The position numbers were made by a program, and so were the translations under genes. Positions 10,116 through 40,144 of a DNA stretch of 41,152 bases are shown piece after piece. Each line of letters begins with the position of its first letter. The stretch's first letter is position 1. This stretch comes from a virus (lineage: Duplodnaviria > Heunggongvirae > Uroviricota > Caudoviricetes): positions 1 through 41,152 of IMG/VR virus record IMGVR_UViG_2703718810_000001. One strand, given 5' to 3'. The notes under the pieces are model-generated. The model saw nothing but the letters and a program-made list of their open reading frames with translations. It had not been told where the DNA came from and made no database searches.

Positions 10116-11063
10116 ATGAGCAATACAGCAAAAATCTACGATTTCAGCGCCGCACACGAGCGCAGGAGCAACAGGATGGAGAACCAGAAAACTGGTTACA
10201 TTCCGTTGTACCGGAGCATTCTGAAACAGTCATGGGCGAAAGATGTTTATCTTCGCACCCTGTGGGAAAACCTTCTCCTGAATGCCGCCAGAAAGCCATA
10301 CAAAGCGAATTTCAAAGGTCATGAATGGCATCTGCAACCCGGTCAACTGGTTGTGACAGCAGCTGATTTAGGTCTTCAGTTATGCGACAGGCATGGCAAG
10401 CCAGCAAGCCGCGATCAGGTTGAGCGGATGCTTCAGGTTTTTGTGAAAGAGGGGATGATCTCCATTGATGGAGAGAAGCAAAAAGGTCGTGTGATTACCA
10501 TCACAAATTACCATGAATATGCTCAAAAAATGGACAATTCACCCGCACATGAAGCCGCACAAACAACCGCACATGATGCCGCACATGATGAAGCCAGTAA
10601 TGGCGCGGCTTTCAGCGTACATGCCACACATGAAAGCGCACATGAAGCCGCACAAACAACCGCACATCATGAACAAGAAGGTATTAACAAGAATATAAAT
10701 AATACCCCCCTACCCCCCAATGGGGGAGGCGATGGGCAGGTTAAACCTGAACGTCGCAAGGCAGAACGAATCGACTACGAATCCTTCCTGAACGCCTACA
10801 ACACCGAAGTCGGTGACAGACTTCCACATGCTGTTGCGGTCAACGAGAAACGCAAACGCCGCCTGAAGAAAATCATCCCGCAACTGAAAACGCCAAACGT
10901 GGACGGTTTCAGAGCGTATGTCAGGGCGTTTGTGCATCAGGCCAAGCCGTTTTACTTCGGAGACAACGACACGGGCTGGACGGCAGATTTTGATTACCTG
11001 CTGAGGGAAGATTCGTTAACGGGAGTTCGGGAAGGGAAGTTTGCAGACAGGGGGATTGCATGA
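10116..11063 (+). CDS. replication initiation protein (O / gp18-like) with internal iteron repeats
   Basis: Position between c1 and the helicase; repeated [10 protein letters not shown] peptide encoded by DNA iterons; start overlaps the upstream stop. Confidence 0.65.
10543..10710. repeat. candidate ori: GCACATGA(A/T)G iterons plus adjacent AT-rich segment
   Basis: At least six copies of a ~12-bp repeat at 10543-10672, then AT-rich ATTAACAAGAATATAAATAATA; lambdoid origins lie inside the initiator gene. Confidence 0.45.
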
Positions 11064-13453
11064 AACAGGATATCGAAGCGAGCGTTATCGGTGGCTTGCT
11101 GATTGGTGGATTAACACCAACTGCCAGTGACGTTCTGGCAACGCTTGAGCCGGAAGCGTTTTCAATTCCGCTCTACCGGAAAGCCTTCGAGGTTATCCGC
11201 AAGCAGGCGCGAAACAGAAACCTAATCGACGCGCTGATGGTTGCCGAGGCGTGCGGAGAGGAGCATTTCACGTCAATCCTGATGACCAGCAAAAACTGCC
11301 CGAGTGCCGCAAACCTGAAGGGATATGCCGGAATGGTCGCGGATAACTATCACCGCCGTCTGGTGCTGGAAATCATGGATGAAATGCGTGAACCAATTCA
11401 GAGCGGAACCATCGACGCATCGAGTCAGGCGATGGATGAACTTGTAAAGCGTCTCTCAGCCATCAGAAAGCCCCGTGACGAGGTTAAACCGGTACGCTTA
11501 GGGGAAATCATCACTGACTACACCGACACGCTTGACAGGCGTCTGAGGAACGGAGAAGAGTCCGATACCCTGAAGACCGGAATCGAAGAACTTGACGCTA
11601 TCACCGGAGGGATGAACGCAGAAGACCTGGTGATAATCGCTGCTCGTCCTGGTATGGGGAAAGCAATGGCGCTAAGCGAAGGGATTTTACTTGCAGATGG
11701 CACCTGGACTACTCACGGAGAAGTCAAAATTGGCGATCGCATCGCGTCAATAGACGGGCTTCCTTCGGAGGTAATTGGCGTCTTCCCGCAAGGGAAGAAA
11801 TTCACATATTTAGTCACCTTTGAAGACGGACGTAGCGTGAAATGTGCCGATAACCACTTATGGGAAATTTCATCATCAAGATTTACTGGTAAACGCGTTG
11901 TTGATACTGATGCGCTGGCTGGGATGCTACAAAAAACACGTTATCAGGGAAGAATAAGAGTGCCATCCTTGACCGGAGACTTTGGTAAAAATATTCCCCT
12001 TGATGGTTGGGTTATTGGGGCTCTACTTGGTGACGGTTCGTTGATAAAAGGCATCAAGTTCACCAACTCGGAAGAATATGTCCTGAGCCGCATGAGTGAT
12101 GCAATTGCACCACTGCGACTGGTTAAGGTAGGAGAGAATGATTATTTGATAAGCAACCAAAAAGGCCAGAAGAACCCACTATTGGACAAACTACGTGGCA
12201 TTGGGATGATCGGGAAAGGTGCGTCCGAGAAGGAAATCCCAGCAGAAATTTTTAGTGCTAGCAAAGAAATACGTACCGGTGTTTTAACTGGCCTTCTCGA
12301 GACAGATGGCTGGGTTGAGAAGTCCGGATGCATCCGCTTTAGTTCATCCAGTCAGAAATTAGCTAAAGGATTAGTAAGGCTTGTTAGATCTTTAGGTGGA
12401 ACCGCCAAAGAATCCAGCAGGACGGGAATAGTTTACACGTACAAAGGAGAGAAGCATGACGGACTTGATGCACACATGGTCAGCATGAAGTTGCCATCAT
12501 CTTTGATAGAGCAAATTCACTCACCACGTTTACGCAAAAATCTCGGGATTAACAGGCTTGGCGACCTTGGTGTGGGTATCAAATCGGTTGAAGTTGTTGA
12601 GCCAGAAGAGTGTCTCTGCATCATGGTAAGCCATCCTAGCCATCTCTATGTGACAACGGATTACATCGTTACGCACAATACGGAACTGGCGCTGAAGATT
12701 GCCGAAGGTGTTGCAAGCCGCGTTATTCCTGGTTCTGACGTCCGGCGCGGAGTATTGATTTTCTCAATGGAAATGAGCGCATTGCAGATTGCAGAGCGAA
12801 GCATTGCCAACGCCGGGAGGATGTCGGTTAGCGTGCTGCGAAATCCTGCATCGATGGATGACGAAGGCTGGGCGCGTGTTGCTAACGGCATGAGTCAGCT
12901 TGCAGATTTGGATGTATGGGTAGTCGATGCCTCGCGGTTATCGGTCGAAGAAATTCGCTCAATCGCAGAACGGCACAAACAGGAAAATCCAAACCTGTCA
13001 CTCATCATGGCGGATTATCTTGGCCTGATTGAGAAGCCGAAAGCAGATCGCAACGACCTCGCAATTGCTCACATCTCCGGAAGCCTGAAGGCGATGGCGA
13101 AAGACCTGAAAACGCCTGTTATCTCCCTGAGTCAGCTTTCGCGCGATGTTGAGAAGCGACCAAACAAACGCCCGACAAACGCAGATTTGCGTGATTCAGG
13201 AAGCATTGAGCAGGACGCAGACTCAATCATCATGCTCTATCGGGAAGCGGTATATGACGAGAACAGTAGCGCCGCGCCATTTGCTGAAATCATTGTGACG
13301 AAAAACCGTTTTGGCTCGCTTGGTACGGTTTACCAGCGGTTCTGTAACGGACACTTTGTTGCATGTGACCAGGATGAAGCCAGACAGATTTGCACAGCAT
13401 CAAATGCACCTGCTGCGCGTGGCAGACGATATGCACAAGGGGCTGACGTATGA
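11060..13453 (+). CDS. DnaB-family replicative helicase containing an intein
   Basis: DnaB motifs ARPGMGK...[35 protein letters not shown]; 797 aa versus ~460 for DnaB because of a ~339-aa insertion in the P-loop. Confidence 0.8.
11663..12679 (+). mobile_element. intein with LAGLIDADG homing-endonuclease domain, inserted between K and T of the Walker A GKT
   Basis: Insert starts at Ala202 and ends ...VTHN before Thr; LAGLIDADG-like motifs GALLGDGSL and GLLETDGWV; Trp (NHLW), Cys (EECLC), Thr (THN) fit the class 3 WCT pattern. Confidence 0.6.
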
Positions 13454-13478: not shown

Positions 13479-13510
13479 AGGCCTGCTGGTAATCGCAGGC
13501 CTTTTTATTT
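13479..13510 (+). terminator. rho-independent terminator between helicase and ninB
   Basis: AGGCCTGC-tggtaatc-GCAGGCCT hairpin followed by TTTTTATTT. Confidence 0.55.
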
Positions 13511-13526
13511 GGGGGAGAGGGAAGTC

Positions 13527-13967
13527 ATGAAAAAACTAACCTTTGAAATTCGATCTCCAGCACATCAGCAAAACGCTATTCACGCGGTACAGCAAATTCT
13601 TCCAGACCCAACCAAACCAATCGTAGTAACCATTCAGGAACGCAACCGCAGCTTAGACCAGAATCGAAAGCTTTGGGCTTGCCTTGGTGACGTCTCTCGT
13701 CAGGTTGAATGGCATGGTCGCTGGCTGGATGCAGAAAGCTGGAAGTGTGTGTTTACCGCAGCATTAAAGCAGCAGGATGTTGTTCCTAACCTTGCCGGGA
13801 ATGGCTTTGTGGTAATAGGCCAGTCAACCAGCAGGATGCGTGTAAGCGAATTTGCGGAGCTATTAGAGCTTATACAGGCATTCGGTACAGAGCGTGGCGT
13901 TAAGTGGTCAGACGAAGCGCGACTGGCTCTGGAGTGGAAAGCGCGATGGGGAGACCGGGCAGCATGA
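13527..13967 (+). CDS. ninB: NinB recombination protein
   Basis: Translation from [15 protein letters not shown] matches lambda NinB as recalled; strong G-rich RBS. Confidence 0.8.
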
Positions 13968-35201: not shown

Positions 35202-35275
35202 AGTTGAAGCCCCAACTGCGGGAACAGTCAGGGCTTCTGTTGTCAGTAAATTCGTGGAGAAAAACCAACATGAAT
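35202..35275 (-). ncRNA. sar: possible sar-like antisense RNA region opposite the ant ribosome-binding site
   Basis: P22 has a small antisense RNA at the arc-ant junction; boundaries here are guessed, no promoter or terminator assigned. Confidence 0.25.
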
Positions 35276-38750: not shown

Positions 38751-39908
38751 TCACTCCACCTTTTCATCAAGCCAGTCCGCCCACCACTGCATCATTTCTC
38801 TGCGCTTATCGAGATACTGAGCATGGTTGTAAATTCCACGTACAGATCCGCCGTTGGCATGTGCCAGTTGCACTTCAATGGCGTCGGCAGGCCATTCGTG
38901 CTCGTTCATAATTGTGCTGAATTCATGCCTGAATCCGTGACCGCTTTCCAGACCCTCATAGCCGATTTGTTTGATCACAAGCAATACCGCGTTCTCGCAG
39001 ATTGGCTTCTTCTTATCGTTGCGACCGGCAAAAACAAACTCTGATACTGGTTTAGTGATTGAGCTTAGCGTAGTGAGAAGTTCAACCACCTGGTCTGACA
39101 TAGGAACCACATGAATTTTGCGACCCTTCATCACACTGGCGTCGATGGTGATAATCCTGTTTTCAAAATCGACGTTCTTCCATTGCATGGAACGAAGCTC
39201 TTTCGTTCTTAGGGCTGTATAGCGTAAAACCTTGGTCGCAATGAGCGATACGATGCTTCCTGAAAATGTTGCCAGTGCTTTGTTAAATGCCGGGATCTGG
39301 TCTGCAGGAAGAAACGGGAAGTTTTTCTTGCGGTATCCCTTCATGGCGTCAGCAAGGTCAGGTGCCGGGTTATATTTAGCCCTACCAGTGACAATAGCGT
39401 AACGGAAAACCTCGCCACATCTTCTGCGTGCTTTGTTGGCTCGCTCCATTGCACCGCGATCTTCAAATCTGCGGATTACTTCCAGCAGTTGCATCGGCTC
39501 AATATCCTGAATCTCAAGACCGCCGATGATGGGTAAAATGTCGTCATCAAACATTTTGGCAAGTTCAGTTGCATAGCCTACTGACCAGACTTGCTTCTTG
39601 TGCTCGTACCATTCCTTGTAAATCGCACTAAATGAATTGTTGTTAGACGAAGCCTTTTTCGCCTTTACCGGATCGATGCCAACCGAGATGTCTTTCCTCG
39701 CAGTCCATGACTTATCCCTTGCTTCCTGCAAAGTCATAAGCGGATATTTTCCGACGGTCAGGATTTTCTCTTTACCGTCAATCTTGTAGCGAAGCTGCCA
39801 TACCTTTTTCCCGGATACAGGAACATAAAGGTACAGGCCATTACCATCGAGAAGGCGGTATGGTTTTTCTTTCGGCTTTGCTGCTTCAATCTGCTTAACG
39901 GTGAGCAT
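38751..39908 (-). CDS. intS: tyrosine integrase (IntS-like)
   Basis: Translation from MLTVKQIEAAKPKEK matches K-12 IntS as recalled; adjacent to argW. Alternative GTG start at 39944. Confidence 0.85.
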   Translation of the reverse strand: MLTVKQIEAAKPKEKPYRLLDGNGLYLYVPVSGKKVWQLRYKIDGKEKILTVGKYPLMTLQEARDKSWTARKDISVGIDPVKAKKASSNNNSFSAIYKEWYEHKKQVWSVGYATELAKMFDDDILPIIGGLEIQDIEPMQLLEVIRRFEDRGAMERANKARRRCGEVFRYAIVTGRAKYNPAPDLADAMKGYRKKNFPFLPADQIPAFNKALATFSGSIVSLIATKVLRYTALRTKELRSMQWKNVDFENRIITIDASVMKGRKIHVVPMSDQVVELLTTLSSITKPVSEFVFAGRNDKKKPICENAVLLVIKQIGYEGLESGHGFRHEFSTIMNEHEWPADAIEVQLAHANGGSVRGIYNHAQYLDKRREMMQWWADWLDEKVE

Positions 39909-40069
39909 GGGTAAAAATCCGGTGGGTAAAATTATTTTATCCACTTTTTACCCGTCATGGAGTGCGGCTGTCAACGATCTGAAGCGAACCATGACGAACT
40001 ATGAATCTACGGAAGGCTTGATATTAAGGGGATTTTGCGGACTGGTACGGATGGGAGCGAACTGATAAA

Positions 40070-40084
40070 TGGTGTCCCCTGCAG
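40070..40084. repeat. attR core (TGGTGTCCCCTGCAG), 3' end of argW
   Basis: Exact copy of 441-455. Confidence 0.7.
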
Positions 40085-40144
40085 GAATCGAACCTGCAAT
40101 TAGCCCTTAGGAGGGGCTCGTTATATCCATTTAACTAAGAGGAC
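40070..40144 (-). tRNA. argW: tRNA-Arg (anticodon CCU)
   Basis: 75-nt cloverleaf ending ...GGGGACACCA with anticodon loop CUCCUAA; matches argW as recalled. Confidence 0.85.

Follow-up and report, generated by a model that had tools for sequence, protein, structure and literature searches.

A probable full-length class 3 intein with an embedded LAGLIDADG endonuclease in the Walker A loop of a phage DnaB-type helicase

Why is the replicative helicase of a P22-like Escherichia coli prophage some 340 amino acids longer than expected? The question is raised by IMG/VR virus record IMGVR_UViG_2703718810_000001 (Caudoviricetes), of which positions 1 to 41,152 were analysed (the window, 41,152 nucleotides (nt) in all). 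The helicase gene (11060-13453, plus strand) encodes a DnaB-family, P22 gp12-type replicative helicase of 797 amino acids (87.0 kDa), while alleles of the same gene that lack the extra segment encode 458 amino acids. An initial annotation, made from the sequence of the window, had noticed this excess and attributed it to a class 3 intein with a homing endonuclease. According to our analysis, the insert is very probably a class 3 intein of full length, placed in the Walker A loop of the phage DnaB-type helicase and containing a LAGLIDADG homing endonuclease with two motifs.

Further information was obtained from alleles of the gene without the insert. The insert is an in-frame segment of 1017 nt (11663-12679, plus strand) that encodes 339 amino acids (36.9 kDa; precursor residues 202-540) and lies between Lys201 and Thr541 of the Walker A motif GMGK/T (...ARPGMGK / TELALK...; a slash marks the junction). 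The N-extein (residues 1-201; 11060-11662, plus strand) ends in ...ARPGMGK and corresponds colinearly to the first 603 nt of alleles without the insert. The C-extein (residues 541-797 plus stop; 12680-13453, plus strand), also colinear with them, starts at the Walker A Thr and contains the rest of the RecA-like ATPase domain. When the helicase gene was compared by megablast with 5426 complete E. coli genomes, 713 were matched and only 24 contained the full 2394 nt. The remaining ~690 carry a ~97% identical allele, matched in two pieces that span 1377 nt (2394 minus 1017) and labelled "replicative DNA helicase" in RefSeq. Junctions were read directly and alleles were compared at fixed coordinates. 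Intein-free alleles (n=8) read GGTATGGGGAAA/ACCGAACTGGCG, with the codons GGG AAA/ACC GAA, and intein-bearing alleles (n=8) read GGTATGGGGAAA, the 1017 nt and then ACGGAACTGGCG. The window itself reads GGTATGGGGAAA/GCAATGGCG...ACGCACAAT/ACGGAACTGGCG, and the empty site is GCTCGTCCTGGTATGGGGAAAACCGAACTGGCGCTGAAG, also given as GCTCGTCCTGGTATGGGGAAAACCGAACTGGCGCTGAAGATT. Alignment to intein-free helicases, proposed in the initial annotation as a check, thus confirmed the insertion point between the Walker A Lys and Thr, and the boundaries first suggested are exact at the DNA level. Nor is the segment a conserved domain of homologous helicases, as hundreds of near-identical alleles lack exactly these 1017 nt.

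Once the insert is removed, an intact Walker A GxGKT is obtained together with the DnaB N-terminal and RecA-like C-terminal domains expected of a DnaB-family helicase. Pfam recognises the DnaB N-terminal domain in the precursor (residues 3-95, 48.8 bits) and DnaB_C (240 bits) in two stretches, that of the C-extein being residues 540-762 (profile positions 32-247), and the LAGLIDADG_3 and Hom_end matches fall between both DnaB_C stretches. The 458-residue product spliced in silico aligns in one stretch to TIGR00665 DnaB (336 bits) and TIGR03600 phage_DnaB (312 bits); since both scores are below the equivalog cut-offs, they indicate membership of the DnaB family and not an equivalog. The predicted masses of the spliced helicase and the free intein are 50.1 and 36.9 kDa, which replace the ~52 and ~38 kDa initially forecast. 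The insert was also said to be more AT-rich. This holds against the flanking helicase parts, both in GC content (45.8% in the insert, 53.2% in the N-extein and 52.1% in the C-extein) and in GC at third codon positions (43.7%, 59.2% and 51.8%, respectively), but not against the whole phage, the window mean being 47.0%. Consequently, composition points to a history different from that of the helicase gene, and does not imply that the insert is foreign to the phage.

Class 3 inteins are defined by the lack of an N-terminal Cys, Ser or Thr and by co-varying Trp at B:12, Cys at F:4 and Thr at G:5, the WCT triplet (PMC2807308, PMC3196547). Their +1 residue is usually Thr or Ser, most sit in helicase P-loops (PMC2807308, PMC3196547), the family has been reported to be monophyletic (PMC3196547), and the role of the block F Cys in splicing has been described (PMC6195587). 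The insert shows by sequence every feature listed for the class by Tori et al. 2010 (PMC2807308). As first noted, it starts with Ala and ends in His-Asn before a Thr: Ala1 (Ala202 of the precursor), without a nucleophilic side chain, opens block A (11663-11701, plus strand) at the K/A junction, and Thr337-His338-Asn339 close the insert at the C-terminal splice junction THN/T (12662-12682, plus strand), with Thr541 at +1. Block B (...CADNHLW...; 11828-11863, plus strand) contains His65 (B:10) and Trp67 (B:12, the first residue of the triplet). Block F (12611-12652, plus strand) contains Cys319 (codon 12617-12619), the predicted F:4 branch-point nucleophile. Cys61 (11843-11845, block B:6) and the C-x-C formed by Cys317 and Cys319 in block F (12611-12619) cluster at the predicted active site.

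We aligned the insert with 37 database sequences that cover both splice junctions (38 with the window) and are hosted by DnaB helicases, PhoH proteins and other P-loop ATPases. His65, Trp67, Cys319, Thr337, His338 and Asn339 are invariant in 38/38, position 1 is Ala in 33/38, and the +1 residue is Thr in 36 sequences and Ser in the other 2. The Trp, Cys and Thr assigned to blocks B, F and G in the initial annotation therefore correspond to Trp67, Cys319 and Thr337. The block F nucleophile can be specified as the second Cys of ECLCIMV, Cys319, because this column is invariant and that of Cys317 varies among relatives (C/T/A/M/V/Q). When the splicing domain alone was compared with solved structures by phmmer, block F through THN aligned with vpvrCVEVDNPxHLYL...THN of 6bs8 and 6rix/6riy, Cys319 being aligned with the catalytic Cys of 6bs8 and 6rix, and HLW was paired with HQW of the Mycobacterium smegmatis and M. 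chimaera class 3 DnaB inteins. All full-length relatives (37/37) share the signature, and among the solved structures compared the closest are class 3 DnaB inteins and gp41-1. The E-values of the sequence matches to solved inteins range from 1e-9 to 1e-7; taken with the structural match to PI-SceI given below, they make it clear that the likeness to inteins is not due to chance.

A structure was predicted with AlphaFold2 for the intein plus six extein residues on each side, from a 46-sequence alignment (mean predicted local distance difference test 94.2, predicted template modelling score 0.92). In the model, the N- and C-terminal parts of the insert together build a hedgehog/intein (HINT) fold, split by the endonuclease domain. 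Searched with Foldseek against the PDB, the whole model matches PI-SceI (E = 3e-18, template modelling (TM) score 0.71), Thermococcus (TliVMA) and Pyrococcus VMA inteins and PI-PfuI, and its middle domain matches I-DmoI-type LAGLIDADG enzymes, in keeping with the alpha-beta-beta-alpha-beta-beta-alpha pseudo-dimer typical of two-motif monomers. Matches of the splicing domain are to the class 3 DnaB mini-inteins 6bs8 and 6rix, with target-normalised TM scores of 0.76-0.79, and also to the Prp8 and Ssp DnaB inteins and the hedgehog domain 1at0.

The two LAGLIDADG-like motifs first noticed are both there, and both retain the Asp predicted to be catalytic. The first, VIGALLGDG (residues 117-125; 12011-12037, plus strand), has Asp124 as the predicted catalytic acid, and its G-x-L-L-G-D-G is nearly invariant in the 46-sequence alignment. 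The second, LTGLLETDG (residues 208-216; 12284-12310, plus strand), has Asp215 as the predicted catalytic acid. HMMER aligned it, together with the upstream ...EKEIP..., with PI-SceI ...KNIP...GLIDSDGYV; Lys190, upstream of the second motif, aligns with PI-SceI Lys301, and K, D and G are invariant among the 46 sequences. The aligned PI-SceI positions are taken to be the catalytic residues Lys301 and Asp326; in its first motif the corresponding residue is Asp218. Pfam LAGLIDADG_3 scores 29 bits (cut-off 22.5) and, with Hom_end, covers the region of the second motif (residues 192-253). Thus, the endonuclease looks intact as far as its sequence can tell.

The element resembles several known inteins. 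The class 3 prototype, the DnaB intein of mycobacteriophage Bethlehem (MP-Be DnaB; PMC2807308), is also inserted in the P-loop of a phage DnaB-type helicase and shares the non-nucleophilic first residue, the WCT triplet, Thr+1, the C-terminal T-H-N and the full length (341 amino acids, against 339 here). It belongs to an actinobacteriophage, whereas ours belongs to an enterobacterial lambdoid/P22-like phage, and it has Ser62 at B:7 where ours has Ala62; this comparison is made feature by feature. M. smegmatis DnaBi1 and M. chimaera DnaB-1 (6bs8, 6rix; PMC6195587, PMC7664689) share the DnaB P-loop site, the numbering of His65 and Trp67, and an aligned catalytic Cys and T-H-N, and in DnaBi1 the triplet Trp67/Cys118/Thr137 is proven (PMC6195587). 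However, they are cellular mini-inteins (139-145 amino acids) that have lost the endonuclease and have Ser+1 and DxxH, while the window intein has a complete LAGLIDADG domain, Thr+1 and AxxH, and identity to them is low (E ~1e-7).

The intein in protein P of the Shiga-toxin phages phi24B and Min27 is 50% identical over 339-342 amino acids and shares A1, HLW, ECLCIMV, THN/T, both LAGLIDADG motifs and the GK/T site. Its host P is, in contrast, a non-orthologous TOPRIM-primase/gp4-type helicase, with extein similarity below detection. An intein in phi24B P was noted by Smith et al. 2012 (PMC3430580), who assigned no class. In Min27 gene P (locus L003, 1358-3940), phi24B, phiXuzhou21-Stx2a and other Shiga toxin 2a (Stx2a) phages, we observed a 342-residue intein with the class 3 signature at GHGK/T. 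The best PDB match of the N-terminal splicing half (E = 1e-9 to 5e-11) is gp41-1 (6qaz, 6riz), from a cyanophage-like metagenomic helicase, which also ends in T-H-N. Natural gp41-1 differs: it is split and belongs to class 1, having Cys1 as well as Phe at B:12 and Asp at F:4. The top hit, 6riz, was engineered from it to carry the WCT triplet (PMC7664689). PI-SceI (yeast VMA1), the archaeal VMA inteins and PI-PfuI have the same combination of HINT and double LAGLIDADG domains, with aligned catalytic Asp/Lys/Asp positions, but they are class 1 (Cys1) and only ~15% identical, and PI-SceI (454 amino acids) contains an extra DNA-recognition region.

Is the element also mobile? At 99% identity or more, the intein is present in 24 of the 5426 complete E. 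coli genomes, from horse, dog, chicken and human isolates and including O121:H19 and O157:H7 TT12A, in 51 phage records, each of a Stx2a-converting phage or of TL-2011a, and in ~20 IMG/VR contigs. Since the window itself is a P22-like prophage, one intein is shared by different types of phage. Over the 17 distinct intact alleles that bear the intein, its nucleotide diversity (pi) is 0.0046, while the N-extein has 0.024 and the C-extein 0.019, which makes the intein 4-5 times less diverse; segregating sites amount to 20/1017 in the intein and 117/1374 in the exteins (Fisher p = 9e-13). Intein-bearing alleles do not make one extein clade: their exteins differ from each other at 14-38 positions and from those of intein-free alleles at 21-46, so that the ranges overlap. 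Further away, a 93%-identical intein is found in a helicase with 76% and 84% identical exteins, and 66-71%-identical inteins occupy the same GK/T site in DnaB-family helicases with exteins only 28% (N) and 37% (C) identical, in a Leminorella grimontii prophage and in IMG/VR. The 50%-identical intein of Min27 and phi24B resides in a non-orthologous primase-helicase, as mentioned above. In a scan of species-representative genomes L. grimontii was the sole relative, the closely similar copies not being among the chosen representatives. Judged from these sequences, the distribution suits an element that passes from one helicase gene to another more quickly than the genes themselves diverge, and is in line with recent horizontal spread by homing.

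At the codon of Thr+1 (12680-12682), 16/17 distinct intein-bearing alleles have ACG and all intein-free alleles examined (8/8) have ACC, and in a comparison of eight against eight alleles this was the sole fixed extein difference. We dropped ACG versus ACC as a strictly fixed marker because one of the 17 distinct intein-bearing alleles has ACC. The synonymous change may have been left by co-conversion over a very short tract, or it may affect recognition by the endonuclease. A 60-nt probe for an empty site with ACG gave no 60/60 match among 334 full-coverage records, although alleles with other nearby differences could still have ACG. Six genomes of E. coli Res13 swine strains contain a 58-nt relic (locus L018, 2498-2558) made up, at 100% identity, of the final 52 nt of the intein and the first 6 nt of the C-extein. 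It lies in a degraded prophage, flanked by the gene of a cro-like regulator and a truncated gene for a 'DNA transfer protein', and one deletion endpoint is 6 nt beyond the splice/homing site.

Several observations weigh against a splicing and homing class 3 intein. Pfam Hom_end_hint scores 18.6 bits, below its gathering cut-off of 32.1, so that the splicing domain is recognised through the PDB and profile alignments and through its fold. At block B position 7 there is an Ala where characterised class 3 inteins have Asp, Ser or Cys. Splicing, the role of Cys319 and cleavage of DNA by the endonuclease are all deduced from sequence and a predicted structure. Low intein diversity could come in part from recombination that shuffles the flanks in mosaic lambdoid phages. 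Finally, variable codons change the amino acid more often in the intein (7/20) than in the exteins (13/111), which indicates weaker constraint on the intein.

The last two points are also those of the strongest alternative, in which the intein splices while its endonuclease is inactive, and spread is passive, by recombination or module exchange of lambdoid replication regions. Lambdoid replication modules are notoriously mosaic, and the helicase allele family is shared by P22-like, Stx2a and other prophages, as this alternative expects; the weaker constraint on the intein would also be in keeping with it. On the other hand, the two LAGLIDADG motifs, like the Lys that aligns with PI-SceI K301, are intact and do not vary among relatives, the intein is less diverse than both its flanks, and the carriers are not one extein clade. 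Moreover, recombination of flanks cannot explain the cross-family cases, since related inteins sit at one P-loop site in helicases whose exteins are 28-37% identical, beyond the reach of homologous module exchange. We consider this explanation unlikely.

A second alternative takes the RefSeq presentation at face value: a decaying, splicing-dead intein in a helicase pseudogene of a defective prophage. In all 24 carrier E. coli genomes (L001, 3001-5394; L005-L010, 398-2791), the Prokaryotic Genome Annotation Pipeline (PGAP) gives the gene as 2-3 overlapping 'incomplete' pseudogene pieces, typically an incomplete "DnaB-like helicase N-terminal domain-containing protein" and 1-2 "C-terminal domain-containing" pieces; phage records name it "DNA helicase" or "hypothetical protein". 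As the PGAP pieces overlap in one continuous frame, the split is an annotation artefact. The 797-codon frame is intact in the window and 25 other copies; it is intact in 8/9 alleles fetched from genomes and phage records and in 18 further IMG/VR copies, and all catalytic residues are conserved. The exception, E. coli ET734 (locus L008, 2530-3017), has its C-extein truncated by an IS66-family element, downstream of an otherwise intact intein; it speaks for decay, as does the 58-nt relic. Nevertheless, Stx2a phages carry the element, and one carrier record bears the name WG5::TT12A, which suggests a lysogen made in the laboratory with a TT12A phage. Excised copies of the TT12A-specific prophages, among which the intein-bearing one may be, rise after mitomycin C induction (PMC11052207), in a study that does not mention the helicase or an intein. 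Carriage by Stx2a phages of O121:H19 and O157:H7 and the apparent lysogen suggest that the phage probably replicates and thus needs a working helicase. A split Walker A should abolish ATPase activity, so propagation of the phage would imply splicing. A dead intein is therefore highly improbable.

A third alternative accepts splicing and changes the route, by direct attack of Thr+1 as in class 2, or by Cys317 or Cys61 acting in place of Cys319. KlbA-type inteins with Ala1 do exist (PMC2807308), and the two extra cysteines lie near the active site. Class 2 (KlbA-type) inteins, however, lack the WCT triplet, all three residues of which are present and invariant here. Cys317 is not conserved among relatives, whereas Cys319 is, and aligns with the proven nucleophile of M. 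smegmatis DnaBi1. A class 1 assignment does not agree with the insert either, which has Ala1, AxxH and not TxxH in block B, and Cys in place of the usual Asp at F:4. We judge another route to be highly improbable as well. That the segment is a helicase domain peculiar to this lineage, or a once free-standing endonuclease gene now fused to the helicase, for which only its extra length speaks, is refuted by the clean lack of 1017 nt in ~690 near-identical alleles, by the HINT blocks that flank the endonuclease and by the uninterrupted DnaB profile match of the spliced product, and has practically no probability left.

With a class 3 intein and an intact endonuclease as the preferred reading, it is tempting to propose how the element works, by analogy with the class 3 family literature. 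Translation would give the 87-kDa precursor, inactive because its ATP site is split. Cys319 (F:4), activated by His65, Trp67 and Thr337, would attack the Lys201-Ala202 peptide bond to form a thioester branched intermediate, and the N-extein would then be transferred to the side-chain hydroxyl of Thr+1. Cyclisation of Asn339 would free the intein, and an O-to-N acyl shift would restore GMGKT in the active helicase. The freed intein, or the precursor, could cut intein-free alleles at GGGAAA/ACCGAA when two phages or prophages meet, and repair from the intein-bearing copy would spread the element (homing).

The neighbourhood of the gene is that of a P22-like E. coli prophage. Upstream, a lambda-O-type replication protein gene (10116-11063; Pfam Phage_rep_O) overlaps the helicase start with its 3' end, and ninB (13509-13967) lies downstream. 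At 35202-35269 (minus strand) Rfam recognises sar RNA (91 bits), which in P22 is the antisense RNA of the immI/ant region, and this confirms that the prophage is P22-like. A 397-residue open reading frame at the integrase position (38751-39944, minus strand) adjoins a tRNA-Arg (anticodon CCT; 40070-40144, minus strand). This tRNA is probably the attachment site of the prophage, and the last ~1 kb of the window is thus likely to be host chromosome. Three antisense open reading frames (61-76 amino acids) that overlap or flank the insert gave no family matches and were dismissed.

The element is a further well-preserved case of the class 3 inteins of phage-helicase P-loops, and its mechanism is not new. 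In the literature covered, which left InBase and fuller class 3 lists outside, we found no description of the helicase intein, the only mention of a relative being that of the phi24B P protein (PMC3430580). For annotation, the finding means that a probably working essential replication gene is scored as broken, Stx2a prophages of O121:H19 and O157:H7 included. Class 3 inteins have been studied mostly as actinobacterial sequences in foreign expression hosts. A class 3 intein native to an E. coli phage, with its endonuclease and with natural ~97% identical empty alleles, would be a convenient system for homing and splicing in the real host.

The Shiga toxin output of Stx2a phages follows phage genome replication, and the catalytic Cys of M. 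smegmatis DnaBi1 is trapped in a disulfide with a second Cys. By analogy, though we hold it to be quite improbable, the intein might be no neutral parasite and act as a conditional switch on phage replication, in which oxidants or zinc would reversibly block helicase maturation via Cys319, near Cys317 and Cys61. Block of splicing by redox state and zinc has been shown for class 3 DnaBi1 of M. smegmatis (PMC6195587, PMC7360933). If this were true, burst size and toxin yield of Stx2a phages would respond to oxidative or metal stress through conditional splicing.

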